Positions 15,150 to 58,486 of a stretch of 58,511 nucleotides of DNA are shown here, piece after piece. The position numbers and the translations under genes were made by a program. Source of the DNA: an uncultured Elusimicrobium sp. (lineage in GTDB: Bacteria > Elusimicrobiota > Elusimicrobia > Elusimicrobiales > Elusimicrobiaceae). The notes under the pieces are model-generated. The model saw nothing but the letters and a program-made list of their open reading frames with translations, was not told where the DNA came from and ran no database searches. Location of the stretch: assembly GCA_902787065.1 (NCBI GenBank), contig CADAFA010000001.1:1-58511 (forward strand), read 5' to 3'. Positions within the stretch are counted from its first letter, which is position 1. Every line of letters begins with the position of its first letter.

Positions 15150-15176
15150 ACACCCTTTCGGGTGTTTTTTTATTTT
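15150..15176 (+). terminator. Rho-independent terminator (copy 1 of a duplicated 30-nt unit)
   Basis: ACACCC-TTTC-GGGTGT followed by TTTTTTATTTT. Confidence 0.7.
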
Positions 15177-15334: not shown

Positions 15335-15362
15335 ACACCCTTTCGGGTGTTTTTTTATTTTT
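15335..15362 (+). terminator. Rho-independent terminator (copy 2, identical to 15150-15176)
   Basis: ACACCC-TTTC-GGGTGT-TTTTTTATTTTT. Preceded by CAAATCCCCTCT, which duplicates the tRNA-Leu(CAG) T-arm 3' side. Confidence 0.6.
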
Positions 15363-15878: not shown

Positions 15879-15935
15879 ACTTATAAACACTCCTAAATTG
15901 ATTCATACAGCGTTTTTAATTTAACTGTATACTAT

Positions 15936-15964
15936 ATTGTACAGAAAAAAAAAAAAAAAAACAA
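15936..15964 (-). promoter_or_regulatory. Pilin-paralog promoter with T17 spacer tract
   Basis: Minus strand reads TTGTTT (15964-15959), 17-nt spacer made of 14 further T of the tract plus CTG, then TACAAT (15941-15936). T17 spans 15945-15961. The downstream leader TACAATATAGTATACAGTTAAATTAAAAACGCT matches 37588-37620. Confidence 0.5.
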
Positions 15965-16081
15965 AACTGAGTATAAAAAACCCAGCTAATATTTTTGAGG
16001 AAATTTTGATTTTTACCGCTAGTAATTGTGAAAGTAAAACTGTAATGTGCGAAAATGTTACGACATTACACAAAATATTAT

Positions 16082-20389: not shown

Positions 20390-21166
20390 ATGGAATCATT
20401 ATTTGTTTATATTTTAAGTCTAATTTTAGGTGCAATGGTAGGCAGTTTTTTGAATGTCTGTATTTATAGAATACCGGAAAATGTTTCGCTTTGGTGGCCA
20501 CCATCAACTTGCCCGAAGTGCAAAACAAGAATCAAATTCTACGACAATATTCCTGTATTAAGTTATTTAATTTTACGCGGCAAATGCAGGAATTGCAAAG
20601 CAGGAATTTCTGCCCAATATCCGCTTATTGAGGCTACAACATCTCTTTTAACCTTATTTGTAGTTTACAAACTCGGTTTAACTTATTGGACGGCAATTAC
20701 CCTGCTTGTGACTTATTCTTTAATAGTTTTATCTATGATAGATTTCAGACTTTATATTATACCGGATAGGTTTTCAATAGGTTTGACTGTTTTAGGGCTT
20801 GTGGTGTTTTTTATTAACCCTGCCTTCAGCGGAAATCTAACGGCAAAATTTTTACAATGTTTGACCGGCGGTGCTGTGGGATTCTTCGGTCTTTGGGGTA
20901 TGGCAATAATAGGCAGTTTGCTATTCAAAAAAGAAGCCATGGGTGGCGGAGATATTAAATTAATTGCAGCCGTAGGCACTTTAACAGGGGTTAGCGGTGT
21001 TATTTCAACTTTAATTATTGCTTCTTTTCTTGGTTTAGTTTATTATGCTGTTTTGTTTATTTTAAAGAAAAACCCTCAAAACAAAACTATCCCTTTCGGA
21101 CCTTTTATAAGTATAGGGCTTTTTATAAATATATTATTCCCCAATAATTTGCTATTATTATATTAA
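20390..21166 (+). CDS. pilD: Prepilin peptidase (A24 family, PilD/GspO)
   Basis: Zn-finger-like CPKCKTRI...CRNCK, YPLIE, two catalytic Asp regions including GGGDIKL. Polytopic membrane protein. Confidence 0.9.
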   Translation: MESLFVYILSLILGAMVGSFLNVCIYRIPENVSLWWPPSTCPKCKTRIKFYDNIPVLSYLILRGKCRNCKAGISAQYPLIEATTSLLTLFVVYKLGLTYWTAITLLVTYSLIVLSMIDFRLYIIPDRFSIGLTVLGLVVFFINPAFSGNLTAKFLQCLTGGAVGFFGLWGMAIIGSLLFKKEAMGGGDIKLIAAVGTLTGVSGVISTLIIASFLGLVYYAVLFILKKNPQNKTIPFGPFISIGLFINILFPNNLLLLY

Positions 21167-22899: not shown

Positions 22900-25761
22900 T
22901 TACCAAGGAACTTCTGTACACCTAAAGGCCAAACTTGAAATATGTGTACAATATTTCTTAGGAATAATACTACCACAAGTGTCCCATTGAGTAGCTGGAG
23001 GAACCGGCGAATTCATGTTCCAATTCCCATTTATAGGAATACCTACTCTAGTTGGATTGGTTGTAGTGCGACAATAGCCGGTAACGGTTTGCTGATTACT
23101 AGGACTATAGTTATTTATTGTTGTAATAGAAGTATCACTACAATAAGAATCGCTACAGTGTGGATTATTGTACCCTTGCCCGCTACTTCCGCAAGTTACA
23201 AGTCTACTAAAAGCACAACCGGTATCCGAAGGTATATATTCAAAATAAGCAGAAAATGTAGTAGTTTGATAACACTTCTTCTTCGCATTGTTATACACTG
23301 TGCCTTGCGGACAGCTGACTAATTGACAGTTCTTACAATTTATGCCATCTGATGTCGGATATTGAGCAAGGGCATTTGAACACTGTGCCCCGGGCCTTAA
23401 AAGAACAACCTGATTATCATATTGCCATGTCCAAGTTCCATCCTGATTTTCCTTGCATTTATGTTCGTACATACTGCAAGAATCCGGCCCTATAACAGAG
23501 AGATTATCCACCCCGCACATAGCATCGGTATAACACTGTGACCAACGGCAGCTTTCGCACCTTTGGAAACCTGTCAATCCATTTAAAGAGCAGGAGTGAG
23601 GTTGTTCAACATTTTCACAATTATTTCCTAAATGCCATTCCGCTATACCATTAGAAGTTGGCGGGTTATACATATCAGAACCCGATAACCATTGTGTATA
23701 TCCTTCTTGGGCCCAACATTCAGATTTATATGTAGCACACCCACTGTCATAATCAGCAGGTTTTGCTGAAGCATCACATAAAGACCACGGCGACCACTTA
23801 CACTCCTGGCAGACCCTATTCAATAAAGGTAGCCATATAGGTGGGGCAGTTGGGTCATTTGAATTTGGAACATAGTTCCAATTAGGGGGGAGAGGGATTT
23901 GTCCGCCACCTCCGCCACCTCCGCCAGCACCACCGCCAGCACCGCCGCCACCGGATTGACCGCCACCCGACTGACAGTACACTATATTAGGGCCGCATAT
24001 ACCGGATAAGCAAGAGTAACATTGATTACCTCTACACACATCCGGCTCATACCCACCTGAGAAAATCCCACAGCCAATACAATCAGCTGCACAAGTACCT
24101 TCTGCGTCTGAGTAAGAACAGCAGTTGTCACCTGAACCCCTGCCCCCTGTATTTTGCGAGGTACCGTCATTACAATCGCCAGAATAGCAATATTCCCTTA
24201 AACCGTTTTGTTCACAATTATACCAAGGGTGTAAAAATTCAATTTCCTCAGTATACTGCCAATGCCAATTGCCATCGCTATCTTTTACACATTCTTGTTT
24301 CTTTTTTTGACAATCGCCAACTTGTGCCGCGGGAAGCATTGTATTAGGGTCGCAATTTTGATTTGGATCAGGGAAACAATCTTTTGACCATTGACAGTCG
24401 TCTTGGCAAATTTTAACGAAACCATTTGTGCATCCTTCTTCTTTAGTTTGGCCGGTAAAGCAAGCACTTCCACTCTTAAGTTTGCAAGCAGTAATTAAAT
24501 CTACACCGGAATAACTATCATTTAACTCGCAGCTGGAAAATACCTTAGAACCGCAAGTATTGCCGGGAGTGGCAATAGAATATAAATCCGTACCGTCACA
24601 ATCTTGTCCTATATCCCCGTTAACCTCTATACATTCATTGTTATTGGCGCAGTACCACTGGCCGGTAGTGCCGTTACATTCAACCGTATTATCTTCTGTA
24701 CTCCTATAACCGCAACATTGCTGGGAAGACGGGGGAGTACTTCCTCTTGTTCCGGAAATATCATTTGAACAAGGATTACATACCTCTATGGGATGTGCAT
24801 TTGCCATACAAATTTCGCTAACACTCGGTTTTGGAAGGCTGCAACTCTTATCACATTCACAAGTTTTTTCATTAAGTTTAGTTCCTGTAGGGCATTCCTT
24901 TGGACGGCACTCAGTTTTGCCTGATAATTGCCAAAAGCCGGAAGTACATATCCTTTCCTGCCACTCTACCCCACATACTAAATTTATAATTGGAAGAAGG
25001 GAACCAGGATCTATACCTCTGCCGCGTTTACCACTGCCTTGTTTACCACAAGCATTATTTGTTTGTATCCACTCTGTTGCACCTTCTACGGAACATGGCT
25101 GATTACCACCTATACATTCACAGTTCTCCTCGTTAAGCATACCACCGCTTGCCTGGCAAGAATTGTACATATCACAAGGACATTTTTTGCATTCACAGGT
25201 AGAACAGAGGAAGCCAAAACCGTTACCAAATTGCTGGGCGCATATATCCTCATTTAATTCGCAGGGCTCTTGGTCGTTGGGACACAATTCAGCCAAATTA
25301 TCTACAGGGGAGACAAAGTCTTTTATCTCCTCGCAAAAGGGGCCGCTGCATTGTACTTTATCATGAGTCTTATAGTTTTTTACCAAAGTATAATCACTAC
25401 CGCTAATATTAGATACTGCTTGTATACAGTGCTGGGTAGGTACTTTCTTATATGTGAAATTGGCAGTTACTAAATTTTCATAAACCACCCCCTCAACGGT
25501 TACTTTTTTCTTTATAGGGGCATTTAAAGCGGCTAAACTTGCTGAATATCTGTTGTGCTGTATAAAATATTTTTCTTGTGCGCCGGCTAACATATCAAGA
25601 ACATGTAACCCATCGGCGACACGGCTTCTCTTTATCACTTTGTTATAGGTTGGCACAGCAATTGCTGCCAATACAACTAAAATAATGAGCACCACCAAAA
25701 CTTCAAAAAGGGTATAACCTTTTTTTCGTTTAAACTTAAATTTGCTAAATAATTTGTTCAT
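22900..25761 (-). CDS. Giant modular type IV pilin-like protein: prepilin N-terminus plus about 900-aa Cys-rich extracellular region with a poly-Gly hinge
   Basis: Leader MNKLFSKFKFKRKKG / YTLFEVLVVLIILVVLAAIAVPTY (Gly-1, Glu+5). About 82 Cys by hand count. Repeated modules (CQKKKQECVKDSDGNWHWQYTEEIEFLHPWYNC vs CSMYEHKCKENQDGTWTWQYDNQVVLLRPGAQC; CQDDCQWSKDC / CQECKWSPWSLC / CESCRWSQC). GGGQSGGGGAGGGAGGGGGGGG tract. Confidence 0.8.
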   Translation of the reverse strand: MNKLFSKFKFKRKKGYTLFEVLVVLIILVVLAAIAVPTYNKVIKRSRVADGLHVLDMLAGAQEKYFIQHNRYSASLAALNAPIKKKVTVEGVVYENLVTANFTYKKVPTQHCIQAVSNISGSDYTLVKNYKTHDKVQCSGPFCEEIKDFVSPVDNLAELCPNDQEPCELNEDICAQQFGNGFGFLCSTCECKKCPCDMYNSCQASGGMLNEENCECIGGNQPCSVEGATEWIQTNNACGKQGSGKRGRGIDPGSLLPIINLVCGVEWQERICTSGFWQLSGKTECRPKECPTGTKLNEKTCECDKSCSLPKPSVSEICMANAHPIEVCNPCSNDISGTRGSTPPSSQQCCGYRSTEDNTVECNGTTGQWYCANNNECIEVNGDIGQDCDGTDLYSIATPGNTCGSKVFSSCELNDSYSGVDLITACKLKSGSACFTGQTKEEGCTNGFVKICQDDCQWSKDCFPDPNQNCDPNTMLPAAQVGDCQKKKQECVKDSDGNWHWQYTEEIEFLHPWYNCEQNGLREYCYSGDCNDGTSQNTGGRGSGDNCCSYSDAEGTCAADCIGCGIFSGGYEPDVCRGNQCYSCLSGICGPNIVYCQSGGGQSGGGGAGGGAGGGGGGGGQIPLPPNWNYVPNSNDPTAPPIWLPLLNRVCQECKWSPWSLCDASAKPADYDSGCATYKSECWAQEGYTQWLSGSDMYNPPTSNGIAEWHLGNNCENVEQPHSCSLNGLTGFQRCESCRWSQCYTDAMCGVDNLSVIGPDSCSMYEHKCKENQDGTWTWQYDNQVVLLRPGAQCSNALAQYPTSDGINCKNCQLVSCPQGTVYNNAKKKCYQTTTFSAYFEYIPSDTGCAFSRLVTCGSSGQGYNNPHCSDSYCSDTSITTINNYSPSNQQTVTGYCRTTTNPTRVGIPINGNWNMNSPVPPATQWDTCGSIIPKKYCTHISSLAFRCTEVPW
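23902..23967 (-). repeat. In-frame GGN low-complexity tract with 9-nt and 12-nt tandem duplications (encodes the poly-Gly hinge)
   Basis: Plus strand TCCGCCACC TCCGCCACC TCCGCCAGCACC ACCGCCAGCACC GCCGCCACC. Confidence 0.8.
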
Positions 25762-36764: not shown

Positions 36765-37511
36765 ATGAAAAGAATTGTCTTGCTAAGACATGGGCAAAGT
36801 TTGTGGAATAAAGAAAATAAATTCACAGGCTGGACTGATGTTATACTTACACCTGAAGGTTTACAGGAAGCCAAAAAAGCCGCAATTTTACTTCGGGAAA
36901 ACAGTTTTAATTTCGATTATTGTTTTACTTCTTACTTAAGCCGCGCAATAGATACTTTAAATATTGTTTTAAAAGGTTTAAACCAAGAGTATTTGCCGGT
37001 GGAAAAATCTTGGCGTTTAAATGAAAAGCATTACGGCGTTTTACAAGGTTTAAATAAAGCGGAAACGGCTGAAAAATACGGGGCAAAGCAAGTCCAAATT
37101 TGGCGAAGAAGTTTTGATATAGCACCGGCCCCTCTTGATGAAGAAGATCCTCGCAACCCCGCTTTAGACCCAATGTATAAAAAAATCCCAAAAGAATTTT
37201 TACCGCGTACCGAATCTTTAAAAGATACAATTAACCGCACTATGCCTTATTGGCAAGAAAATATTTTCCCGAAACTTAAAGATAATGACACTTTACTTAT
37301 CGTAGCACATGGCAACTCTTTACGTGGAATAATAAAGCACTTAAAAAATATCAGTAACGAAGATATTGTTAATTTAAATTTACCCACCGCAGTTCCTTAC
37401 GTTTTTGAATTTGATGAAAATTTAAATTTAATCAAAGATTATTTTTTAGGTAATCAAGACGAAATAAAAGCCAAAATTTCCGAAGTTGCAAACCAAATAA
37501 ATAAGAAATAA
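36765..37511 (+). CDS. gpmA: 2,3-bisphosphoglycerate-dependent phosphoglycerate mutase
   Basis: [21 protein letters not shown] catalytic His motif, RSFD, AHGNSLR second His motif. Confidence 0.9.
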
Positions 37512-37540
37512 TTTCTTTACAAAAATACACAAAATTTTAT

Positions 37541-37648
37541 TTTCTCGTCGTAAGGTTTAAATACCTCTTGACAAGCTTTTTTTTTTTTACAATATAGTAT
37601 ATAGCTAAATTAAAAACGCTATAAAATAAAAATATGGAGAAATAAATT
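37541..37648 (+). promoter_or_regulatory. Pilin-paralog promoter/leader cassette with T12 spacer tract
   Basis: TTGACA 37568-37573, AGC, T12 37577-37588, TACAAT 37588-37593 (14-nt spacer) or TATAGT 37593-37598 (19-nt spacer). The leader ..TAAATTAAAAACGCT.. and GGAGAAATAAATTATG are shared with other paralogs. Confidence 0.5.
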
Positions 37649-38128
37649 ATGAATAAAAAAGCTTTCACTCTTTTAGAACTTTTAGTTGTGGTTTTAATTA
37701 TTGGTATACTTGCCGCAATTGCTTTGCCGCAATATAAATTAGCAGTTGCAAAAAGTAAATTCAGCACTTTAAAAAATGTTACGAAAGCTTTGCAAGAATC
37801 TACCGAAAGATCTTATTTGGCAAAAAGTATTCCACCTACCAAATTTAACGACTTGGATGTTTCAATACTAATAAAATCGGAAAATGAATATGATGATAAA
37901 TTTACTATATATCCCAAAAACACTGATATATATAGCTGCGAAATTTGGAAAGATTTAAGAGTTATTTGTAAAACATATATTTTTGGAATACAAATGATGT
38001 ACAGTAAAGAGGCTTGCACTGTCTACAGTTTAGATACTAATGATATCCCAAACCGACTTTGTCAAAACGAAACAGGAAAAAAAGAAGGGAAAAAAGCTGA
38101 TACCCGTTACACCTATTATTATAATTAA
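37649..38128 (+). CDS. Prepilin-type N-terminal methylation-domain protein (pilin-like paralog)
   Basis: MNKKA/FTLLELLVVVLIIGILAAIALPQYKLAVAKSKF. Cys-containing variable C-terminus. Confidence 0.8.
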   Translation: MNKKAFTLLELLVVVLIIGILAAIALPQYKLAVAKSKFSTLKNVTKALQESTERSYLAKSIPPTKFNDLDVSILIKSENEYDDKFTIYPKNTDIYSCEIWKDLRVICKTYIFGIQMMYSKEACTVYSLDTNDIPNRLCQNETGKKEGKKADTRYTYYYN

Positions 38129-38169
38129 AGGTTTACCGAAAAATATAGGAAACAAAAAATAAAAAATAA

Positions 38170-38724
38170 TTATTTACTATCTCTTTCCGATTGACCGCCG
38201 ATATTGTGAACTATACAGTCATCACCGTCTTTTTCTTTTAAATGCACGTGGATAATATCATCATCTGCGGTAATAACTTCCCTGCCAATATAATCAGCTT
38301 TTACAGGGATCTCGCGGTGGCCGCGGTCTACCATGACCAAAAGTTCCACTTTGCGCGGGCGGCCAAGATCGGTTATTGCGTCTAAAGCGGATCGAACTGT
38401 GCGGCCGGTGTATAAAACATCATCAACAACAATTAAATTTTTATCTTTAATATCAAAGCCGACTGAGGACGGTTTAATTTGAGGGTCTTCGGCAACTTTT
38501 GAAAGGTCATCGCGGTACCAAGTTATGTCCAAAATACCAACGGGTAAAGTAATACCTGCAAATTTTTTAATACGTTCTTGGAGGCGGTTTGCCAAATAAA
38601 CACCGCGTGTTTTTACGCCGATTAAGCAAAGGTTAGAAGTATCACTGTAATTTTCCAAAATCTGGTGGGCCATGCGGTCCAAACTTCTTAACATATCTGC
38701 TTGGTTTGCAATTATTTTTTTCAT
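38170..38724 (-). CDS. pyrR: Bifunctional pyrimidine operon regulator / uracil phosphoribosyltransferase PyrR
   Basis: PRPP-binding VVDDVLYTGRTVRSALDAI. 184 aa. Own extended -10 TGCTATAAT (38773-38765, minus strand). Confidence 0.9.
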   Translation of the reverse strand: MKKIIANQADMLRSLDRMAHQILENYSDTSNLCLIGVKTRGVYLANRLQERIKKFAGITLPVGILDITWYRDDLSKVAEDPQIKPSSVGFDIKDKNLIVVDDVLYTGRTVRSALDAITDLGRPRKVELLVMVDRGHREIPVKADYIGREVITADDDIIHVHLKEKDGDDCIVHNIGGQSERDSK

Positions 38725-40893: not shown

Positions 40894-41250
40894 TTATTGG
40901 CCTGTATTTACAGTAACGGTAAAAGTAGTAATTATTGTATAAGAATTGTTTATTGTAGCAGTGCCGGCTGTCATAGTAATAGTAGAAACGGTTACCCCAT
41001 TATTGGGATAATAAAGACAATTCATGTCCAAAGTTCCGCAAGGGGGTTCCCCCTTTAATTCTGAAGTGGCTTGGAAAGACATATATTGATCCAAACAACT
41101 GTCTGCAACTATTTGGGAGTCCAAAATACGTACCGTTCTGGATAAGTTAGCACTTCTTGTCACGGCATATCTAAGCATCAAAACGGCAAAAGCAGCAACT
41201 ATAAGCCCTATAACTAAAACTTGCATTAAAGCAGAACCTTTTTTGGACAT
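40894..41250 (-). CDS. Minor pseudopilin-like protein, non-canonical (no Phe+1/Glu+5; PilX/GspK-position)
   Basis: MSKKGSALMQVLVIGLIVAAFAVLMLRY hydrophobic helix. Last gene of the pilin row. TAATG overlap. Confidence 0.5.
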   Translation of the reverse strand: MSKKGSALMQVLVIGLIVAAFAVLMLRYAVTRSANLSRTVRILDSQIVADSCLDQYMSFQATSELKGEPPCGTLDMNCLYYPNNGVTVSTITMTAGTATINNSYTIITTFTVTVNTGQ

Positions 41251-41960
41251 TATGCCCCTCCCTTCCTAGTTAAAAAATGTTTAAATTTAAAGTAAACCGG
41301 CGGAGTACCTTCACCAAAATCCCTATTAATTGTATAATCGATGAATAATTCCGAGATACTATCAGATGGTATTGTCAAAGAAAAATCTGAAACATAAGGC
41401 ATGATATTTTCCCTGTTTGAAGCTGTAGAACAAAAGGAATGTGCATCACTTATTAAGGTGCTGATATTTATAACTTTATTCTCTGTAAGAAAATTATTTT
41501 TACAACGGTAAACTTGCATTGAATCCTTATCAAAAACGTATATTGTATAAGAAGGCTTTATACAACGGGAAACCATATTCCCCAATGTATCCCCTGTAGC
41601 CCAAGCATTATTTGAAGCACCGCAAATCGGATTGGTAATTCTCATAAGTTGGTCCCTGTTTTCAGGATTTATAACAGCCTCTTTAACAGAAATATATTCA
41701 CCATCATTGCAAGAAGCCCCACCTTTAGAATAGCTCCAAGGGCAAATAATTTCACTTGAGGAAATAAAATCAGAATAAATTTTCCTAAGAAAAACAGTAT
41801 TTTCATTTTTTATAATAGTCTGGCGTTGGGCTTGGGCAGTATGATTAGAAGAAGTTTTCCACATAGCAACCAAAGCAAGCATTACCATCCCAGAAATAAA
41901 GATGGACACCAACAATTCCATTAAAGTAAAACCTTTTTTCGTCATAATTATTCCGTACAT
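41250..41960 (-). CDS. Minor (pseudo)pilin, PilW/GspJ-position (alternative start at 41945)
   Basis: MTKKG/FTLMELLVSIFISGMVMLALVAMW. 231-236 aa. Confidence 0.7.
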   Translation of the reverse strand: MYGIIMTKKGFTLMELLVSIFISGMVMLALVAMWKTSSNHTAQAQRQTIIKNENTVFLRKIYSDFISSSEIICPWSYSKGGASCNDGEYISVKEAVINPENRDQLMRITNPICGASNNAWATGDTLGNMVSRCIKPSYTIYVFDKDSMQVYRCKNNFLTENKVINISTLISDAHSFCSTASNRENIMPYVSDFSLTIPSDSISELFIDYTINRDFGEGTPPVYFKFKHFLTRKGGA

Positions 41961-42403
41961 TGTGCCTTTAAACTTAAAACGTTAAAATGTTCCAGCTGAA
42001 CGGGCTTACTTACACACATCCCAGGATCCAGAGACAACCAAGCCTCCGGGAGGGATTGCGAAACTTTAACATTATAGCTAAACACCCCTGTACTATCTTT
42101 CTCACATAAATTTTTAAAATTAAAGGTAAAAAGGCCATTACATGTTTTTAAATCTTGGTCAGAAACTGAATATTCATAGTTGCATCCCATTTTTTTCAAA
42201 TGACATTCAGTATTTGAACGGCAATCTTTAAGCATACCATAAGCGCTTTGCAAACTATATAATACCTCTTCCCGTTCGGAAGAAGAAATTATAGCACGCC
42301 TGCTGGACATTAAGGCAGAAAATACAGCCCCTACCATAACAACCACCAGAAACATGGCTACTACTGCCTCCATTATTGTGTACCCTTTATTTTGCATAAA
42401 CAC
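41948..42403 (-). CDS. Minor (pseudo)pilin, PilV/GspI-position
   Basis: MFMQNKG/YTIMEAVVAMFLVVVMVGAVFSAL with Glu+5. Confidence 0.7.
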   Translation of the reverse strand: MFMQNKGYTIMEAVVAMFLVVVMVGAVFSALMSSRRAIISSSEREEVLYSLQSAYGMLKDCRSNTECHLKKMGCNYEYSVSDQDLKTCNGLFTFNFKNLCEKDSTGVFSYNVKVSQSLPEAWLSLDPGMCVSKPVQLEHFNVLSLKAQCTE

Positions 42404-42426
42404 TACCTAGAATTATCCTCTTCAAT

Positions 42427-42906
42427 CTAGCAGGATTCATCCTCCTGCTTATAAACTCTTCCCAGGGAATCTATACAAGCGCATTTACCGGCATATATGC
42501 CTGCATTTTCTAATCCTTTCATAGAAATTACAGGAGAACTACAAGCACAACACTCCGCATCTAGCCCTAACTGAAAAGAATACCTGTCAAAAATATCCTC
42601 TCTGTCTTTTATATATTTACAAGCTGTTAGTATAGAGGGCTCCAATCTTAAATTCTCTTGGCCATAAATATTTTGTATATTACACTCTGTCAGATAAACA
42701 TCGCCCCCACCTATTTTTACACCTGGATAATCCTTTTCAAAATTCATACGAGCTTCATTTAGTTCCCTCATATAAATTAAAGCTTTACCGTTATAAGCGT
42801 CATCTATATATCCTTTAATAAAAGGAGTGCTTAAAACCGCTAAAATCATTAAAATAGCTATTACAGCTACCATTTCCGCCAAAGTAAAACCTTTGCTCAG
42901 TTTCAT
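42427..42906 (-). CDS. Minor (pseudo)pilin, FimU/GspH-position
   Basis: MKLSKG/FTLAEMVAVIAILMILAVLSTPF with Glu+5. Several Cys in the C-terminal half. Confidence 0.7.
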   Translation of the reverse strand: MKLSKGFTLAEMVAVIAILMILAVLSTPFIKGYIDDAYNGKALIYMRELNEARMNFEKDYPGVKIGGGDVYLTECNIQNIYGQENLRLEPSILTACKYIKDREDIFDRYSFQLGLDAECCACSSPVISMKGLENAGIYAGKCACIDSLGRVYKQEDESC

Positions 42907-43403
42907 TAATTTTGTACCTCTACTACCGTATCAGTGTTAGGATTAAAAAAAGCACAAGAAGGGTAACCTTCAACATTTTGCTCTTTAGGTTTCATAAAAA
43001 CTGACAATGTATCTAAATTACCTCCGCAAGCACTATTACTTGGAATGCCAAAATAAAAATTAAATTTTTCATCAAACCCTAAACTCTTTTCTATATATCC
43101 GCAAGTAAATATACTTTTCATTTTTTCACTGGCATTATGGCTATAATAATTGCAAGTCCCACTTTCAATAGTTGTATCTATAAGCAAAGGTGCTGATAAA
43201 CCCGGTTGACCATACTCCAATATAAACCTTGCAACACCGCCACCTAAAGCAGCTAATTTCCCTTTTGCGGCTTTTACTTCCCCTTCCCTTATAGTATTAG
43301 TATAATAATAAACACCGTAACTGGCAAGTACTGCCACCAAAATTACGGTAACAATTAGTTCCATTAAAGTAAACCCTTTTTTATTTAAATAATTAAAGCT
43401 CAC
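42906..43403 (-). CDS. (Pseudo)pilin
   Basis: MSFNYLNKKG/FTLMELIVTVILVAVLASYGVYYY. Confidence 0.7.
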   Translation of the reverse strand: MSFNYLNKKGFTLMELIVTVILVAVLASYGVYYYTNTIREGEVKAAKGKLAALGGGVARFILEYGQPGLSAPLLIDTTIESGTCNYYSHNASEKMKSIFTCGYIEKSLGFDEKFNFYFGIPSNSACGGNLDTLSVFMKPKEQNVEGYPSCAFFNPNTDTVVEVQN

Positions 43404-43902
43404 AACTATCTAACCTCACTTTTTTTACAATAGCAGGATTTGTTTTTTGTATAAAAAATTTATAACATTCTTCAACATCCTCATCCGGGCCGGTAAACTT
43501 ACAAGTGGTATGGGACAAAATTGAAGTATCCTGATTATCTCCTATTGTATAGCGGCAATTCAGAACTCCTTCAGCCGTTCTTAAAGAATACTCCGTAGCA
43601 GAACCAGTTCTTAAACCCCATCGGTTGGAATTTTGCAAATATACATATCCCTGTTCTGTATCTTCTTGTGTTAAGAGATCAAAATTATCTTTATTGAAAA
43701 TACCTGACATCGGGTTAGAATCATGAATTTCATTATACAATTTTACAGCTGTGGTTAATTCAACTAAACCGATTTTGGCCATTTCCATTTGATTTGTCAT
43801 AACAGAATTTTTAAAAGAAGGTGCAACCAGTAAAGCCAGTGCAGCAATAATTAAAGTAACAACAACAACTTCAATTAAAGTGAACCCTTTTTTACCCGCC
43901 AT
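43393..43902 (-). CDS. (Pseudo)pilin, first of the row. Candidate major subunit (PilA/GspG-position).
   Basis: MAGKKG/FTLIEVVVVTLIIAALALLVAPSF. 1-nt gap after the platform gene. Confidence 0.7.
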   Translation of the reverse strand: MAGKKGFTLIEVVVVTLIIAALALLVAPSFKNSVMTNQMEMAKIGLVELTTAVKLYNEIHDSNPMSGIFNKDNFDLLTQEDTEQGYVYLQNSNRWGLRTGSATEYSLRTAEGVLNCRYTIGDNQDTSILSHTTCKFTGPDEDVEECYKFFIQKTNPAIVKKVRLDSCEL

Positions 43903-43903
43903 A

Positions 43904-45130
43904 TTAACCTCCGATTTGGGACATTTTAAATATCGGCAAGAAAATAGACAAAACTATAACAGCTATTATAGAACCTATACCTACAATTAAAATCGGGTCA
44001 ATCATAGCAGAAAAACGGGCTAGGAATTGATTAACTTGTTCTTGATAGAATACAGCAAGGGTTTCCATAATACTAGGTAAACGCCCAGATTCTTCACCCA
44101 TAAGCATCATTTCAGTCATCAAACCAGGGAAAACTTTAGTTTTTCTAAAAGATTCTGATAAACTCTTACCTGAAGCAACTTCATTTTTAGTATAGGTTAT
44201 AGCTTCCTTTATAATAACATTACCGGCAAAAGATTCTTCCATAACAGTTAAAACGTTAATAATGCTTACACCGCTGTTTAACAAAGTAGCCATGTTATTA
44301 AGTAATTTTTCATAGTAAATATTAGAAACAAATTTGCCGAATATAGGCATGGTTAAATGAAATTTATGCCAAACTTTTTTACCTGACGGAGTAGATATAA
44401 TCATATAAAATATAGACACAATAGCAACTATAATTGTAAATATTAAAAGCCAATGATCTGCTATAGCATGTGAAACATTCAATACGATTTTCGTTATTGT
44501 AGGCAATTCCATGTCAAAGTCTCTAAATATATCAGCAAATGTCGGGACTATCCCTACCACGAAATACACTAAAACACCCATGGCCATAATAAACAATACT
44601 GCCGGGTAAGAAACTGCGGTAATAATTTTGCTTTTCAAAGCTTCTTTAGATTTGACGTATTTAGCAACCTGCATCAAAGCATCAGCTAAATGGCCGCCAA
44701 CCTCACCTGCTTCAATCATGGAAATCCAAGTATGGTCAAATACTCTAGGGAATTTATCAAGAGCTTCATGCATAGAATTACCACTCGCAATATCGCGGGC
44801 TACTGCTACTAAAACAGGCCCAAAATTTTTATCTGTAGAGTATTCTCCAAGCAAAGATATAGCCCTGATTAAAGGAACACCACCGCTTAGCAAAGTTGAA
44901 AGCTGTTCAGCAAAAAAGGCTAAAACATGCCCTTTTATTTTTTTAGAACCGATACGCGCAGAGCTAAATAAAGAAGCAAAAGAAGTTTTTGCCTTTTCCG
45001 GTTTTATTTCTAATACAATAAAACCCTTAACCTGTAAAGCATAAATAGCCTTTTCTATAGTATCAGCTGTTATTGAACTTCTTATATACTTTCCATTAGT
45101 ATCTTGAACTGTACAATTAAACCTAGGCAT
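43904..45130 (-). CDS. pilC: Type IV filament platform protein (PilC/GspF family)
   Basis: 408 aa. Duplicated GspF-type domain (FFAEQLSTLLSGGVPLIRAI.. and YEKLLNNMATLLNSGVSIINVL..). Three TM segments. Confidence 0.85.
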   Translation of the reverse strand: MPRFNCTVQDTNGKYIRSSITADTIEKAIYALQVKGFIVLEIKPEKAKTSFASLFSSARIGSKKIKGHVLAFFAEQLSTLLSGGVPLIRAISLLGEYSTDKNFGPVLVAVARDIASGNSMHEALDKFPRVFDHTWISMIEAGEVGGHLADALMQVAKYVKSKEALKSKIITAVSYPAVLFIMAMGVLVYFVVGIVPTFADIFRDFDMELPTITKIVLNVSHAIADHWLLIFTIIVAIVSIFYMIISTPSGKKVWHKFHLTMPIFGKFVSNIYYEKLLNNMATLLNSGVSIINVLTVMEESFAGNVIIKEAITYTKNEVASGKSLSESFRKTKVFPGLMTEMMLMGEESGRLPSIMETLAVFYQEQVNQFLARFSAMIDPILIVGIGSIIAVIVLSIFLPIFKMSQIGG

Positions 45131-45157
45131 ATTATCTCCTTTTATTCATTTGCTAAA

Positions 45158-46897
45158 TTATTCATTTGCTAAAGTGACAGCAAGAACTTCTTCAACAGTA
45201 GTAATACCGGTTACAGCTTTCCTCCAACCGCTGGCACGTAAATTCCAAGCACCTGTACTTTGGGAAGCTTTTTTAAGCTCAATCAAATCTTTAGTTTGAT
45301 AGATTGTATTGCGCATACTTTCGTTTACTTTAAATACTTCGTAAATTGCTTTTCTGCCCATATAACCGGTACCGGAACACTTAGGACAACCTTGGGCTTT
45401 AAAGAAAGTCCATGTTGCTTTATCTTTAGAAGGTAACATTGATTCCCTTATAACCTGATCAATAACACTCGGCCCCGGAACATAAGGCACTTTACAATAA
45501 GGGCAAAGTACCCTAACCAGACGCTGGGCAGCCACCAAAGCCAAAGAGCTTGCCAGCAAGAAAGGTTCTATACCCATATCAATCAAACGGGGAACAGCAC
45601 CGATAGCTTCATTTGTATGCAAAGTAGAAAATACCAAGTGACCTGTCAATGCAGCTTTTAAGCAAGCTTCTGCAGTTTCAGAGTCCCTGACTTCACCGAC
45701 TAGTATTACATCAGGGTCCTGACGTAAGAAAGAACGCAGGCCCGCCGCAAAAGTTAAACCTATTTGCGGTTTTACCTGTACTTGGCTGATACCGGATAAT
45801 TTGTATTCTACCGGGTCCTCCAAAGTCATAAAATTGTATTCGGAACTTTTTATTGATGTTAAAACAGCATTTAAAGTTGTAGTTTTACCTGAACCTGTGG
45901 GACCGGTCAAAAAAATCAAACCATGGGGTAAAGCTGCTGCTTCCAAGAAATCTTTTTTTTGTTTAGGTTCGAAACCCAATTTGTCAAGATTCAATTCGTT
46001 GCTACCCTTATCCAAAATACGGATAACCAACTTTTCGCCGAAAACGGTAGGACATACTGACACACGGAATTCTACCGTCCTGTTTTGGAATTTTACTGCG
46101 AAACTTCCATCTTGTGGTAAACGTTTTTCAGCGATATCAAGTTTTGATAAAATTTTTATACGGGAAATAATAGCCCCAACGTCTTCCTTGGCCGGTGAGG
46201 TTCTTTCATACAAAGAACCGTCAATCCTAAAACGCAAACTTACTCTTTCATCAAATAATTCTAAGTGGATATCAGACACCCTTTCTGTTAAAGCTTGACG
46301 CAAAATAGCGTTAACCATTTTAACATAATGAGCACCTGCACCGGAAAATTCTTTATCTAAGTCAATTTTAGCATCGGGGTTAGAAAGTTCTTCTAAACTT
46401 TGCCCTTCCCCTGCTTCTGCTTCTTCTTTCTCTTCTGAAATTACTTCTGCAAGCAAGTCTTTCTTAGAATAAAACGCATCCAAAGCTTGAAACAACTGTG
46501 ATTTGCTGGCGATAAAGGGCTGTATCTCAAGCCCGCTCATCATGCGCAAATTATCCAACAGAAAAACGTTGGAAGGATCGTTTAAAGCAACTGCTAAGGT
46601 GTTATCTTCTATAAATAGAGGTAAAATAACATTTTCACGGGCATATTTTTCCGGAATATACTTAGCAAGATTTTGATCTTTTTCAGGTATCAAAATGCCA
46701 TTTTGCCTACTGGCATAAGGTACTGAAAGTTGTTTAGACATTGCTTGTGTAAGTTCTTCTTCTTTAACAATATCCAAGGATACCAAAGCTTCGTTTAAAG
46801 AGACCTCATTTTGCTTTGCATGTAATTCTGCTTTCTTTAAACCTTCTTTGGTTAACTTACCACTTTCTATTAAAATATCTACCAACTGTTTTGCCAT
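45158..46897 (-). CDS. pilB: Type IV filament assembly ATPase (PilB/GspE family) with N-terminal MshEN/GspE_N-like domain
   Basis: Walker A GPTGSGKTTT, Asp box, Walker B DPDVILVGEVRD, His box GHLVFSTLHTN, tetracysteine CPYC...CPKC. Confidence 0.9.
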   Translation of the reverse strand: MAKQLVDILIESGKLTKEGLKKAELHAKQNEVSLNEALVSLDIVKEEELTQAMSKQLSVPYASRQNGILIPEKDQNLAKYIPEKYARENVILPLFIEDNTLAVALNDPSNVFLLDNLRMMSGLEIQPFIASKSQLFQALDAFYSKKDLLAEVISEEKEEAEAGEGQSLEELSNPDAKIDLDKEFSGAGAHYVKMVNAILRQALTERVSDIHLELFDERVSLRFRIDGSLYERTSPAKEDVGAIISRIKILSKLDIAEKRLPQDGSFAVKFQNRTVEFRVSVCPTVFGEKLVIRILDKGSNELNLDKLGFEPKQKKDFLEAAALPHGLIFLTGPTGSGKTTTLNAVLTSIKSSEYNFMTLEDPVEYKLSGISQVQVKPQIGLTFAAGLRSFLRQDPDVILVGEVRDSETAEACLKAALTGHLVFSTLHTNEAIGAVPRLIDMGIEPFLLASSLALVAAQRLVRVLCPYCKVPYVPGPSVIDQVIRESMLPSKDKATWTFFKAQGCPKCSGTGYMGRKAIYEVFKVNESMRNTIYQTKDLIELKKASQSTGAWNLRASGWRKAVTGITTVEEVLAVTLANE

Positions 46898-53076: not shown

Positions 53077-55605
53077 TTATATATTAACATTTTTGAACCT
53101 ATTTTTGGCAAATTCATCATAAGGGTCAAAATACAATATTTCTTGAAGCATTTCTTCGCTTATCTGTCTATCCCCACATTTTTGAGCTGACATAGCTAAA
53201 GATAAGTTATAAGATTTACCCCAAAAATTATTACCTTTGCCCTTTTTTAAGATTTTTGCAGCCTCACAGAAATTACCCTGCCTATAATAAAATTCCGCAA
53301 GCAGAGCATTTATTTCATGTTCTTCAGGATATTTTTTTTGTAGTTTTTCAATATCTTTTAACAAAGTGTCGTCTTGCCTAGTTTTTATTTGGTTTTTTAA
53401 TTCGTTAATTTTGTAAACCTTTTGCAGGAATTTATCAGTTTTTGCCTTACTAGGGCAAATAGTAAAAATTTCCAAGGCAGTCTTATCAAAAATATTTTTT
53501 TGTAAAGCTTTAAGGGCAAAGTCAGAAGCAGCGCTGCAGTTGTTTTCCTTAAAATAAATTTCAGCTAAATATGACGGTAAGTTAGTTTCATAAGGCAACA
53601 CCTCAACTAAAGTTTCAAGAAATTTTTTATCTTCTTTAGAAACATAATTTTGGTTTAATAAAATATTTGCAAACAGTTCTGCCGCAGGGGAATAGGTGGG
53701 TAACAATAATAAATTTTTACGCAAATTTATCAAAGCACCTGCCATATTTTGTTGGATATATTGTAAAGATGCCAGATAGAAATAAAACTCATAATAGGCA
53801 GGGTAAAAATTAAGAACTTTTTCATTAATTTTTTGGGATTTTACAAGATTATTTAATTGTGTTTGAACTTTGATTAAAACATAATATGGTTCAGGCCTAA
53901 GTGAAGATAATTTTATTGCCTTTTCCATATCATCAACGGTATTTTGATAATTTTCCTTAGCTAAATTTTTATATCCCTTTAATTCATAAATCTGGGCTAT
54001 AAAATTTTTTGTTTGGAAACTAATTAAAAGATAAACTGTAAAACAAATTAAAATAAAAATTACCTTACCAATAGCTTTGTTTAAATTAATTTTTTTATTT
54101 TTTGCATTTAAGTTATTTATCAAAGAAAAGATAAACCAAAAGGCGAAACTAACCAATAGAGTTCGCAAAGTAATATTAAATAAATTATCAATCAAAACAC
54201 TTACTAAACCTAATAATAAGGCAAGATAAAAATATTTTTCTTCATTGTTTAAAGTTTTTGTTTTTTTATTGAACATCATAAAAAACAAAACCCATAGAAT
54301 CAAATAAGCAATTAATGAAAAGAAACCTCCATCAGATAATATTTCAAGATATTCATTATGAGTTGCATTTGCTTGCATTTTCATTTTATCTAAAGCAGGA
54401 TTTTGGACGATTAGTTTACCTTGGCAGTAAGGGAAATTAAATTGAAAAGAATTTAACCCTTTACCTAAAATCGGAGAACTTTTAAAATTTTCCAAAGCAC
54501 AATGCCACATCATTAAACGCTGATGTAAAGGCTGAATTAAATTTTTACTTCGCAAAGAAAATGTTTGAGAACTTAAAGCTTGTTTTACTTCTAAAATTCT
54601 TGCACCCGGTAAAGAGTTACCACCCTGTTTTAAATTTTTTATTACCCCAAAAGTACAAGCACAAAAAATTAAAAATAAAATAAATATCTTCAAGAATTTA
54701 CTTATAAATATTTTTCTCAATTCCGAGGATAAAATAAAAAATATAAAACAACAACCCAACAAACCTATCCATGCGGAACGGGTACCAGATATAACTAAAA
54801 ATAAAGCTAAAATTAAACAAATAAAACCGCTTATTAAGTTTTCTTTTTTATTTTTAGCATGCAAAAAAAGCAACAAAGAATATGGTAAAAGAAGTAAAGC
54901 AAAAGAAGCCAAAAAATTTGGGTTACCGAACGTAGAAACAGGGCGCGCACCAAATTCTTTTGAAATATCTAAAACCCAGAATAATTCAAAACCTGTTCCT
55001 TGCATCAAACCGTATAAACAAGCGCAAAAACAAACGGAGAGCATAAGGTCCAAAATTTGCCTTACACCGAAATTTATCAAATGTCTGTAACCCAAATAAA
55101 CCCCTGCGCCCAAAATCAAAATAGCAACAAAAGAACTAGCTTGAACCTTCCACAAAAACCAAGCTAAACACCAAAGAAAAATATTTTTGAAAAATTTATA
55201 AGAGGAATCAGCAAATTCAATTTTTACCGATGCTATTTTGGCGAATAAAAAACCGAATATTAAACCAAAAATTACATAATCTGATTTACGCAAAAATTCA
55301 TTTATTAAAGCTGTTTTATAAGGGGCGGAAATATAATTAAAAATCAAAGAAAGTAATAAAGAGAATAAAAAAATAATAAAAACAAAATCTAATTTAGAGT
55401 ATCGGAGATTGAGTTCCCCTTTAAACAAAATTTCCAAGCCATAACATAAAATAAAAATACCACCGAAAATACCAAAACATAACGGCTGCACTGCAAAAGG
55501 GTTTTGGGTGGCATTTGTTAAAAATAAAAGGGGGCAGACAAATAAACAAATTGTAAAACAAAACCTTTTTAATAAACTGATAAAATTTAAAATTTTATTT
55601 TGCAT
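53077..55605 (-). CDS. O-antigen-ligase-family (Wzy_C) polytopic membrane protein with C-terminal TPR domain
   Basis: More than 10 TM segments. Periplasmic loop ATHNEYLEILSDGGFFSL (Wzy_C H-N-x-[YF]-L...G signature). About 300-aa C-terminal TPR region. Confidence 0.65.
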   Translation of the reverse strand: MQNKILNFISLLKRFCFTICLFVCPLLFLTNATQNPFAVQPLCFGIFGGIFILCYGLEILFKGELNLRYSKLDFVFIIFLFSLLLSLIFNYISAPYKTALINEFLRKSDYVIFGLIFGFLFAKIASVKIEFADSSYKFFKNIFLWCLAWFLWKVQASSFVAILILGAGVYLGYRHLINFGVRQILDLMLSVCFCACLYGLMQGTGFELFWVLDISKEFGARPVSTFGNPNFLASFALLLLPYSLLLFLHAKNKKENLISGFICLILALFLVISGTRSAWIGLLGCCFIFFILSSELRKIFISKFLKIFILFLIFCACTFGVIKNLKQGGNSLPGARILEVKQALSSQTFSLRSKNLIQPLHQRLMMWHCALENFKSSPILGKGLNSFQFNFPYCQGKLIVQNPALDKMKMQANATHNEYLEILSDGGFFSLIAYLILWVLFFMMFNKKTKTLNNEEKYFYLALLLGLVSVLIDNLFNITLRTLLVSFAFWFIFSLINNLNAKNKKINLNKAIGKVIFILICFTVYLLISFQTKNFIAQIYELKGYKNLAKENYQNTVDDMEKAIKLSSLRPEPYYVLIKVQTQLNNLVKSQKINEKVLNFYPAYYEFYFYLASLQYIQQNMAGALINLRKNLLLLPTYSPAAELFANILLNQNYVSKEDKKFLETLVEVLPYETNLPSYLAEIYFKENNCSAASDFALKALQKNIFDKTALEIFTICPSKAKTDKFLQKVYKINELKNQIKTRQDDTLLKDIEKLQKKYPEEHEINALLAEFYYRQGNFCEAAKILKKGKGNNFWGKSYNLSLAMSAQKCGDRQISEEMLQEILYFDPYDEFAKNRFKNVNI

Positions 55606-57955: not shown

Positions 57956-58486
57956 TTATAAATCCGGGCAAGTATAAAACATATCATTTTTTCCACTTAT
58001 TTCGCTTCGGAAGTCACAATTCATTATTTTTTCGCAAAAAGACTTAACTTCCGGAATATAGGACTTATGTTCATAACAGTAAAGTTTATTATCAGAATTA
58101 ATAAAAAACCCTGCTCCCTTATAAAGTCCTTTATTAAATTGGAATAAAGGAATGCTATCTTTCCCGACAGTTACAACATTTAAGTATAAATTTAAATAAT
58201 CATTGGCTTTACATCCGCCTGTTTTATAGGTAGGTCCTAAATAGGAACAAGTTTTTGAATAACCTTCTAAGTCAATATCTAATTCCTCTAATTTGGACGG
58301 ATAAACGTCATTGGTCATATAATAAATATCTATTGAGTTTTTCATAGTTCTCAATATAGGCAGCATGCTTTTAGCTCTGCTTTTCCAAACTGCCTTTTTA
58401 TATTGCGGCAGAGCAATTGCGGCTAAAATTCCGATAATTAAAACTACTACCAAAAGTTCAAGTAAAGTGAAAGCTTTTTTATTCAT
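57956..58486 (-). CDS. Prepilin-type N-terminal methylation-domain protein (pilin-like paralog)
   Basis: MNKKA/FTLLELLVVVLIIGILAAIALPQYKKAVWKSRAK. The RBS/start block GGAGAAATAAATTATGAATAAAAAAGCTTTCAC is identical to that of 37649. Its promoter lies beyond the window edge. Confidence 0.8.
   Translation of the reverse strand: MNKKAFTLLELLVVVLIIGILAAIALPQYKKAVWKSRAKSMLPILRTMKNSIDIYYMTNDVYPSKLEELDIDLEGYSKTCSYLGPTYKTGGCKANDYLNLYLNVVTVGKDSIPLFQFNKGLYKGAGFFINSDNKLYCYEHKSYIPEVKSFCEKIMNCDFRSEISGKNDMFYTCPDL

Follow-up and report, generated by a model that had tools for sequence, protein, structure and literature searches.

A T-homopolymer spacer in a predicted promoter shared by prepilin-type genes of Elusimicrobiaceae

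The vlp genes of Mycoplasma hyorhinis code for a family of surface lipoproteins, and each vlp promoter carries a poly-A tract. Work by Yogev, Citti, Wise and colleagues reportedly demonstrated by experiment that these promoters switch on and off according to tract length. Repeats are also present in the promoter spacers of Neisseria meningitidis opc (poly-C), porA (poly-G) and fetA, and of Haemophilus influenzae hifA/hifB (TA repeats). In the fim2 and fim3 promoters of Bordetella pertussis, a poly-C tract spaces the site for the activator BvgA relative to the -10 element. Slipped-strand mispairing in a T tract of the Helicobacter pylori sabA promoter yields multiphasic, graded output (PMC4081817). 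Sigma-70 promoters of Campylobacter and Helicobacter combine an A/T-rich periodic region with an extended -10 element, TGnTATAAT (PMC3656092). Promoter-spacer work on opc is among the references cited within PMC5084427.

Here we analyse positions 37541-37651 of a 58,511-nucleotide stretch of DNA (the window) from an uncultured Elusimicrobium species of gut or rumen. We lean, if only slightly, towards a model in which this region supplies one prepilin gene of a large family with its promoter and leader, and in which its T tract acts as a slippage-prone dial that sets the register and strength of the promoter. The Elusimicrobiaceae are widespread, mostly uncultured bacteria of gut and rumen, and their genomes contain very large families of pilin-like genes.

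The first-pass annotation of the window had described three sequence blocks (A, B and C) shared by the upstream regions of four scattered pilin-like genes, along with tracts of 27, 12 and 17 T nucleotides, and all of these coordinates were confirmed (Table 1). The copies of block A at 2537-2572 and 37541-37576 match at 31 of 36 positions with one indel. Identity is 31/33 both for block B (37588-37620 and, on the minus strand, 15941-15909) and for block C (37634-37666 and, on the minus strand, 58502-58470). The window contains 430 A/T runs of five nucleotides, 181 of six, 72 of seven and 10 of eight, and beyond these only T12, T17 and T27. These three are its only A/T runs of at least nine nucleotides, where 0.12 runs of 12 or more would be expected, and each is located fewer than 100 nucleotides upstream of a prepilin-type gene with blocks A, B or C flanking it. 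The promoter of the fourth paralog, which starts at 58486, was not recovered, as the only other contig covering it (L089) reaches only 41 nucleotides upstream of the ATG.

Table 1. Features of the window and of the promoter family discussed in the text
Feature	Position	Strand	Remarks
Block A, upstream half of the predicted promoter	37541-37576	+	T-rich CGTCG element and -35 region cTTGACAAGC
T-rich CGTCG element	37541-37552	+	TTTTCTCGTCG; within block A
-35 hexamer TTGACA	37568-37573	+	a constant 2-3 nt separates TTGAC from the T run in many Elusimicrobiaceae species
T12 homopolymer, predicted promoter spacer	37577-37588	+	last T is also the first base of TACAAT
-10 candidate TACAAT	37588-37593	+	14-nt spacer from TTGACA; overlaps TATAGT
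-10 candidate TATAGT	37593-37598	+	19-nt spacer from TTGACA
Predicted 5'-UTR stem-loop	37600-37623	+	TATAGC, 12-nt A-rich loop, GCTATA
Shine-Dalgarno (SD) sequence GGAG	37636-37639	+	inside block C
Focal prepilin-type gene, 159 aa	37649-38128	+	PF07963 N_methyl match; C-terminal part variable
Second block A with T27	2537-2599	+	TTGACA 2564-2569; T27 2573-2599
Pilin paralog split by a frameshift	2609-3129	+	ORFs of 96 aa (2609-2899) and 77 aa (2896-3129)
T17 cassette	15904-15961	-	T17 15945-15961, CTG, TACAAT 15936-15941, block B with hairpin 15904-15931
Prepilin-type gene, 165 aa	15381-15878	-	
Prepilin-type gene, 176 aa	57956-58511	-	coding region 57956-58486; also covers block C and the 3' end of block B; promoter beyond the window end
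Prepilin peptidase, Peptidase_A24 family	20390-21166	+	enzyme processing the pilin paralogs
Core type IV filament machinery	41250-46897	-	minor pilins 41250-43902; T2SSF 43904-45130; T2SSE ATPase 45158-46897
Co-directional upstream genes	1953-2516; 36765-37511; 16082-17989		RuvC; histidine phosphatase; amidase
Family promoter form			TTGACTTG-Tn-GATAAAAT (Tn, T run)
Upstream CGTCG/CGACG element			variants TTTTCTCGTCG/CCCGACGG

The distances from the focal TTGACA to its two candidate -10 elements had been calculated correctly as 14 and 19 nucleotides, and neither falls within the 16-18 nucleotides spanned by well-registered promoters or equals the 16 nucleotides of the T12 form common in the family. 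The position of TACAAT (or TAAAAT) relative to the tract is the same in L053, L025, L058 and L090. The TGn element is absent directly upstream of the -10 at the focal locus, which reads TTT-TACAAT, and likewise in L053, L025 and L090. With no extended -10 TG in the lineage of the window, its promoters should depend on the -35 element. The 14-nucleotide spacer suggests either a permanently weak promoter or a true geometry that differs from the one assumed, and the focal copy is probably a weak or inactive promoter whose length is fixed in the four strains sampled. Transcription would begin about seven nucleotides downstream of TACAAT, which is where the 5'-UTR hairpin begins. Five homologous leaders preserve most of the eight base pairs of this hairpin, although the structure is weak (-4.2 kcal/mol). 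A single compensatory pair and a few substitutions to G.U among the five sequences offer thin support that is only suggestive of a maintained stem. A scan of the whole window with Rfam gathering thresholds returned four tRNAs only, and the cassette was matched by no known RNA family.

The associated genes have the characteristics of type IV pilin-like proteins. Matches to PF07963 exceed the cut-off in all paralogs tested, and the cleavage and methylation motif KKAFTLLELLVVVLIIGILAAIALPQY is followed by a hydrophobic alpha-1 helix. The focal protein has an identical copy in three other assemblies, and the cognate peptidase, assembly ATPase and platform protein are all encoded in the same window as the pilin paralogs. 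Similarity over the first 90 or so coding nucleotides of the four paralogs, with diverged 3' parts, had led the first-pass annotation to propose recombinational shuffling of variable C-termini. This would resemble the Neisseria pilE/pilS system, in which conserved 5' coding blocks accompany shuffled C-terminal cassettes. However, the description of these regions as nearly identical was overstated: they are 71-87% identical, or 71-82% over 30 codons, 8-14 of the 30 codons differ synonymously, and the longest identical run is at most 20 nucleotides. Each paralog begins with a start codon of its own, and wherever upstream DNA could be read, in the window or in another strain, a separate promoter and SD precede it; among the paralogs compared we saw no silent cassette devoid of a promoter. 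The synonymous divergence indicates that the 5' similarity reflects constraint on the protein (the class III signal peptide and alpha-1 helix) rather than recent gene conversion, and we have discarded the shuffling model as extremely improbable.

Cassettes beyond the window were identified by consensus matching, and the DNA-pattern search of metagenomes was made blind to pilin information. Pilin paralogs in many species of the family share one cassette, composed of cTTGACnnG, a T run, GnTAnnnT, a 5'-UTR hairpin and an SD sequence, wherein 2-3 nucleotides separate TTGAC from the run and 0-2 separate the run from TAnnnT. This recurring layout bears out the proposal that blocks A and B form a conserved pilin-paralog promoter cassette with the T tract as the -35/-10 spacer. 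In the pilin-blind search, a prepilin ORF was located downstream of 42 of 54 clean cassettes compared with 1 of 62 chance matches. Thus, the T run appears to be the spacer of a sigma-70-type promoter dedicated to pilin genes, and the search shows the cassette to be almost exclusive to them. These comparisons establish a predicted promoter common to the pilin family, with a T-homopolymer spacer whose length varies from paralog to paralog and, at some loci, from strain to strain. The literature searched yielded nothing relevant on a prior description of such a promoter in Elusimicrobia.

In its usual form (TTGACnnG-T12-GnTAnnnT) the family promoter has a 16-nucleotide spacer, as in TTGACT followed by TG, T12 and GG and then TACAAT. 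The last T of the tract and the following G create an extended -10 element (TGn) just before the -10, and this T-G-n-TAnnnT arrangement is present in most family members. The TTTTCTCGTCG/CGACG element is found upstream of the -35 in 26 of 76 cassettes from other species, compared with 5.6% of controls, and is only a candidate for a regulator site.

A rival possibility is that block A and the T run form a rho-independent terminator for the co-directional upstream gene, with TTGACA residing in the stem. Both copies of block A can form a hairpin (GUCG..AGGU..ACCU..UGAC; -8.0 kcal/mol, and -8.4 kcal/mol for the copy at 2525-2600, z about -2), and block A is positioned 20-30 nucleotides past the stop codon with the T run after it. 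However, the stem is weak and AT-rich, a gap of four nucleotides (AAGC) separates it from the run, and a terminator scan of 37300-38300 called none. In other species, 8-9 nucleotides (TTGACTTG) intervene between any hairpin and the run, and many cassettes (such as L098 and L116) already have a canonical terminator further upstream. Moreover, the cassette tracks the downstream pilin gene and not the upstream gene, and the conserved TAnnnT, hairpin and SD all come after the run. The absence of a called terminator, the weak hairpin, the gap and the association with the downstream gene led us to reject this interpretation, which seems very unlikely.

Tract lengths were compared between strains and paralogs. 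Samples in which the species of the window is present include ERZ28612962/SAMEA5383950, ERZ1029115 and ERZ27280436, and run ERR3275106. The focal T12 is the same in four strains (the window and L001-L003), which differ by 7-23 SNPs over 4.5-6.5 kb. At the T27 locus the run has 27 T in the window, 34 in L090 and at least 28 in L005, whose contig ends inside the run. The T17 locus has 17 T in the window and at least 21, 22 or 42 in other strains, where about 50 extra nucleotides ending in GTGACTTGC are located 5' of the longer run. Orthologous short tracts with identical flanks from different samples have lengths of T12/T11/T12 and T12/T13/T13; one-T changes therefore occur in two of five orthologous groups despite flanks that are 100% identical. 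Two groups besides the focal one are invariant (T12 in three copies, T15 in two to three). Lengths in the lineage of the window range from 9 to at least 42, including T18 in L025 and T9 in L058. Two candidates for orthologues of the focal tract, P0001 (92% identical) and P0004 (63%), were set aside as they sit at other loci and have tract-less promoters, and P0003 (66% identical to the focal pilin) carries cassettes with T15 and T16.

Such differences might be homopolymer artefacts of assembly or sequencing, either in the tracts themselves or in their lengths and the adjacent missing blocks, which would make length differences uninformative. Contigs of every short-read assembly that reaches a long tract break inside it, an outcome compatible with heterogeneity but also expected from homopolymer sequencing problems, and the lengths given for long tracts may be wrong in all of the assemblies. 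Also, the window is shorter by about 50 nucleotides beside each of its long tracts, at 2600 and 15962, than other assemblies of the same species. Between T27 and the start codon at 2609 it lacks block B and the SD, whereas in the orthologous L090 the T34 run is followed by a complete block B and GGAG. Because the long tracts differ in length between assemblies and these nucleotides are missing, the T27 and T17 lengths and their immediate flanks are not species constants. One-T differences between metagenome consensus assemblies, as at T11-T13, could likewise be consensus errors. However, dozens of assemblies, produced independently and with various assemblers, show such tracts at orthologous and paralogous positions, T12 is exactly reproduced in four assemblies, and L090 spans T34 with both flanks. 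In addition, six control groups of T9-T12 tracts from unrelated organisms are invariant between assemblies. An explanation of the tracts or of their length differences by artefact seems very unlikely.

Phase variation, as proposed by the first-pass annotation, is supported in part. Orthologous tracts do differ in length between samples while their flanks are the same (T11/T12 and T12/T13, with T27/T34/at least 28 and T17 against at least 21, 22 or 42 at the long loci), whereas the focal T12 shows the invariance among strains that the annotation had regarded as evidence against its model, and T12 is tightly held across the family. Among the 44 pilin-linked cassettes of the pilin-blind search, T12 was found in 35, T11 in six, T9 in two and T15 in one. 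T12 also occurs in about half of the cassettes in a scan of representative genomes, in which a representative of the same species was not found and the best pilin identity was 45-59%. The further suggestion that gain or loss of two or three T nucleotides would restore register does not extend to the very long tracts (27-34 and at least 42), which are too far off.

In the model we favour, tract length would fix the -35/-10 register and hence how strong the promoter is. Runs of at least 12 T should be intrinsically prone to slippage, giving each pilin gene a built-in mutational dial. One-T changes (spacers of 15-17 nucleotides) would grade expression, and larger excursions would silence the gene. 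Thus, the run probably serves to tune or silence individual pilin genes, and the copies with T27-34 and with at least T21-42 appear to be silenced or decaying. Reversible, adaptive switching at these promoters is plausible.

The tight T12 mode, however, points to stabilizing selection on the in-register length rather than to on/off scatter, and a fixed structural spacer accounts for it no less well than selected mutability does. T12 would then be a constant part of a strong pilin promoter rather than a switch. A rigid or narrow-groove T tract could place the -35 and extended -10 elements, or could be contacted by RNA polymerase or a family-specific regulator, and the odd lengths in the species of the window would result from decay of redundant paralogs and from assembly error, without adaptive switching. 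This possibility deserves serious consideration even though we do not rate it as probable. It agrees with the prevalence of T12 in both surveys and with the invariance of the focal tract and two further orthologous groups. Furthermore, T27-34 precedes a gene whose frameshift is identical in all four assemblies, and the copy in the window has also lost its -10 and SD. A T-rich or A/T-rich stretch upstream of a TGn-extended -10 is, moreover, normal in Campylobacter promoters (PMC3656092). However, spacing alone does not call for an uninterrupted homopolymer of at least 12 nucleotides, and substitutions should erode such a run unless purity itself is selected. The one-T changes noted above also speak against a fixed spacer, as do the intact genes whose tracts are far from register (15381-15878 with at least T17-42, T18 in L025 and T9 in L058).

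A bolder version of the dial model is that selection for mutability itself keeps the T12 of a genome's dozens of pilin promoters pure. Each paralog would have an independent slippage dial, and a clonal population would keep yielding new combinations of pilins and pseudopilins on its surface. Loss of the extended -10 TG in the lineage of the window would have changed a graded control into a genuine on/off switch, which would account both for lengths that range from 9 to at least 42 and for a focal promoter that is out of register. We regard such a family-wide contingency system, new to the phylum and acting on the type IV filament subunits of an uncultured commensal, as a tentative and rather unlikely proposal.

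A single recognizable promoter cassette marks the pilin-like genes and allows the family to be located by sequence, and T-run cassettes explain why metagenome assemblies of Elusimicrobiaceae fragment at pilin loci. The probably hypermutable spacer offers a concrete, testable hypothesis for the tuning or silencing of individual paralogs. If switching occurs, promoter-spacer contingency loci would reach past the classical pathogens and take in a commensal phylum and a repertoire of type IV filament subunits. If it does not, the strictly conserved T12 would still be useful as an example of constraint on spacer sequence within a natural class of promoters.

Each of the described systems shares some features with the pilin cassette. 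The fim2/fim3 promoters also place a homopolymer upstream of fimbrial paralogs whose expression is set independently, although the CGTCG element is only a candidate for an activator site comparable to that of BvgA. In opc, porA, fetA and hifA/hifB, a repeat between the -35 and -10 likewise alters the spacer and grades or switches transcription of surface structures. Those are single loci with G/C tracts or dinucleotide repeats, experimentally verified and with a broad spread of lengths among strains, whereas the pilin tract is poly-T, recurs in dozens of paralogs and clusters tightly around one length.

The sabA promoter resembles the cassette in having a promoter-proximal T tract, an arrangement found at several genes of one genome (PMC4081817). 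However, the sabA tract adjoins the -35 on its upstream side and shifts the axial alignment of UP-like elements and the core promoter (PMC4081817), whereas the pilin tract resides inside the spacer. Campylobacter, another low-GC gut bacterium, has a T-rich stretch directly upstream of a TGn-extended -10 (PMC3656092). There the arrangement lacks a clear -35 and is the genome-wide default in Campylobacter and Helicobacter (PMC3656092), whereas the pilin cassette has a good TTGAC -35 and a pure homopolymer, and is almost confined to pilin genes.

By analogy of layout, the poly-A promoter family of M. hyorhinis vlp is the closest counterpart of the pilin cassette. Both are associated with surface multigene families in which each gene is preceded by a separate promoter, and promoter and 5' region are highly conserved between copies. 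In both, an A/T homopolymer is located between the -35 and -10, with lengths that differ between paralogs and are in register for some. The pilin family differs in its phylum and in its type IV pilin-like protein class, and its switching is inferred. It also differs in that T12 dominates across species, most copies appear to be in register, and most carry an extended -10 TGn at the 3' end of the tract.

The four pilin upstream sites, at genes starting at 2609(+), 15878(-), 37649(+) and 58486(-), agree exactly in sequence with the first-pass annotation, which had described mosaic blocks and T runs shared among them. In the window, which has a G+C content of 35%, A/T runs of 5, 6, 7 and 8 nucleotides occur 430, 181, 72 and 10 times, and only three runs are longer. 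These are T12, T17 and T27, compared with a chance expectation of about 0.12 runs of at least 12 nucleotides. Each is located less than 100 nucleotides upstream of an ORF that matches PF07963 and carries a prepilin cleavage/methylation motif, such as KKAFTLLELLVVVLIIGILAAIALPQY. Thus, the T runs and shared blocks at pilin genes are real and non-random.

Features of the pilin upstream regions and filament genes (L numbers denote sequences from other assemblies or species)
Feature	Position	Comment
Block A (-35 side)	2537-2572 and 37541-37576	31/36 identical, one indel
Block B (-10 and hairpin)	37588-37620 and 15941-15909 (-)	31/33 identical
Block C (SD side)	37634-37666 and 58502-58470 (-)	31/33 identical
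TTGACA	37568-37573	-35 candidate
TACAAT	37588-37593	14-nt spacer
TATAGT	37593-37598	19-nt spacer
T12, focal tract	37577-37588	T12 in three other assemblies; whole 161-nt intergenic region identical
T17, 15878 tract	15945-15961, minus strand	at least 21, 22 and 42 T elsewhere; each contig ends inside the run
T27, 2609 tract	2573-2599	T34 in spanning scaffold L090; at least T28 at contig end in L005
CGTCG/CGACG element	37541-37552 and 2537-2548	also L011, L098, L116, L119, L128, L205 and others
Prepilin peptidase	20390-21166
T2SSE ATPase	45158-46897
T2SSF platform protein	43904-45130
Minor pilins, in a row	41250-43902

The peptidase, ATPase, platform protein and minor pilins encoded in the window make it plausible that the paralogs are subunits of a type IV filament system. 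In a protein-guided scan using one genome per species, the window pilin falls among Elusimicrobiaceae MAGs from rumen and gut; that scan found no same-species representative, and the best pilin identity was 45-59%. The 5' coding regions had been called nearly identical, which is an overstatement given 71-87% identity between paralogs. Recombinational shuffling of C-termini, proposed on that basis, is rejected because 8-14 synonymous differences separate paralogs within the first 30 conserved codons. The longest identical runs between paralogs are at most 20 nucleotides.

Several neighboring features were also observed. A protein of 842 amino acids (53077-55605, minus strand) that combines an O-antigen ligase-like Wzy_C domain with TPR repeats is encoded within a run of co-directional ORFs; its gene shares a strand with those for the filament ATPase and platform protein, which lie about 6 kb away. 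This protein is a candidate PglL/PilO-type enzyme for O-glycosylation of pilins. A giant pilin-like protein of 953 amino acids (22900-25761, minus strand) has a prepilin N-terminal motif and a ComP_DUS match of 26.8 bits, a borderline score that falls slightly short of the 27.3 cut-off. Two identical 30-nucleotide copies of a hairpin and T run (AATACACCCTTTCGGGTGTTTTTTTATTTT; 15147-15176 and 15332-15361, 185 nucleotides apart) occupy part of the interval from a tRNA (15056-15139) to the 3' end of the 15878 pilin gene.

Upstream regions of pilin paralogs in many Elusimicrobiaceae species share a common layout: cTTGAC-n-n-G, a pure T run, G-n-TAnnnT, a short hairpin, the SD and ATG. In the usual T12 form, TTGACT is followed by TG, T12 and GG and then TACAAT, giving a 16-nucleotide spacer in which the final T of the run and the next G supply the TGn of an extended -10. 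We scanned a metagenome collection, blind to pilins, with the pattern TTGACNNG-T9+-N0-12-GNTANNNT. Among clean matches, in which the T run leads directly into GnTAnnnT and at least 200 nucleotides of downstream sequence are available, 42 of 54 have a prepilin motif within about 400 nucleotides, versus 1 of 62 chance matches, whose gap lacks a pure T run. Run lengths in the pilin-linked cassettes are T12 (35), T11 (6), T9 (2) and T15 (1). These counts and the family-wide layout give good support to the proposal that the T run is a promoter spacer, in a class essentially dedicated to the pilin family and with tightly held run length. A terminator of the upstream gene was also considered and rejected: none was called, block A folds into a weak hairpin that is separated from the T run, and the cassette follows the downstream gene. 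No prior description of this cassette was found in the literature on Elusimicrobia.

The cassette is absent at four pilin loci sampled, two per genome, in complete genomes of the cultured insect-gut species Parelusimicrobium proximum and Elusimicrobium posterum (L028, L035, L040, L044), where the longest T run is 5-8; it may be confined to a vertebrate gut and rumen clade. In some cassettes of MAG RGIG9886 (L027, L029, L034, L064), an element of about 100 nucleotides with inverted ends (GTCGTCATTGCGGGCGTGGACCCGCAAT ... CCGGGATGACG) separates the T12 promoter from the SD, placing the promoter 130-170 nucleotides upstream. This insert resembles a small mobile element or repeat that targets pilin leaders.

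Strains of the same species, obtained by exact-protein look-ups, differ from the window at the two long tracts. At the focal locus, three assemblies carry 7-23 SNPs relative to the window over 4.5-6.5 kb, and the tract is fixed in these strains at a length giving a 14-nucleotide spacer. Beside each long tract, about 50 nucleotides present in other strains are missing from the window. At 2600 it has no block B or SD, and T27 is joined straight to AATTGATATATG (2599-2609), whereas L090 (2406-2500), L091 and L092 continue from the T run into 52 nucleotides (CTACAATATAGTATATGGCTAAATTAAAACGCTGTATAAATTAAATATGGAG) that comprise the -10, hairpin and SD. Either the window has truly lost this stretch next to the tract, or the assembly has collapsed there. 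At 15962-15975 (minus strand), a block of about 50 nucleotides ending GTGACTTGC is missing, a second such difference in this assembly that abuts a long T tract; L006-L008 have about 50 extra nucleotides (CATTAAACAAAATTTACTCTTTTTATTTTTTAAAATATCGAAGTGACTTGC) between GTTTTGTTT and a longer run (at least 21-42). The longest resolved tract (T27-T34) belongs to the 2609-3129 paralog, which a frameshift divides into ORFs of 96 and 77 amino acids in 4/4 assemblies, and which is likely a species-wide pseudogene.

Short-read contigs repeatedly begin or end in long T tracts (L004, L005, L006-L008, L091, L092, L227, L228), and for many pilin homologues the only known contigs are shorter than 2 kb. The cassette and conserved N-termini appear to break up assemblies at pilin loci. 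Assembly artefact may influence the precise lengths seen at the long tracts, and likewise the two differences of about 50 nucleotides, but it cannot explain tracts that recur across dozens of independent assemblies.

Orthologous cassettes from related species with 100% identical flanks have T12/T11/T12, T12/T13/T13, T12 three times, and T15 two or three times. Six groups of T9-T12 runs from unrelated organisms are all invariant between assemblies. Relatives that share block B or otherwise lack G after the run have T9 (L058), T15 (L053, L225, L226), T16 (L225) or T18 (L025), for spacers of about 12 to 22 nucleotides. Judged from these alignments, the tract seems less stable than its flanks, and a -35/-10 promoter must be sensitive to tract length. 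What dominates, however, is conservation of an in-register length. Phase variation of the pilin promoters, as originally suggested, is plausible but only partly supported: some orthologous tracts do differ, whereas variation of the focal T12 is contradicted by the strain consensus. Given the mostly conserved in-register length and the fixed focal tract, a mutational dial with occasional silencing fits better than a freely flipping on/off switch. A serious rival is a fixed structural spacer, with T12 a constant promoter element and deviant lengths reflecting decay. Promoters of Campylobacter show that an A/T-rich stretch preceding a TGn-extended -10 can be an ordinary part of a promoter (PMC3656092).

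The 5' half of block A (TTTTCTCGTCG) recurs across species as a T-rich CGTCG/CGACG element 10-20 nucleotides upstream of the -35, and is often palindromic (e.g. TTTTCTCGTCGGGAAAA, GTTTCCCGACGGGAAC). CG[AT]CG is present there in about a third of cassettes (26/76) versus 5.6% of controls, and may serve the pilin family as an operator or activator site. The 3' half of block B forms a putative 5'UTR hairpin whose start coincides with the inferred transcription start. Its eight pairs are mostly retained in five homologous leaders, among which one change is compensatory and several are G.U changes. Covariation is clearer among 20 distinct leaders of a rumen subfamily (L093, L098, L110, L122, L128 and others), in which AAACGTG/CGCGTTT alternates with AAATGCA/TGCATTT. 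There, the first 13 or so nucleotides of the transcript also base-pair with the region around the start codon (UUUUAACAUAAGU with ACUUAUGUUAAAA), suggesting translational control of these pilins.

In the vlp surface protein family of Mycoplasma hyorhinis, each gene has a conserved promoter with a poly-A run between the -35 and -10. This family is the nearest analogue of the pilin cassettes, and Neisseria opc, porA and fetA and Haemophilus hif are single-locus analogues. The T tract of H. pylori sabA acts as a rheostat with graded output, but it lies outside the spacer (PMC4081817), whereas the tract of the pilin cassette is the spacer.
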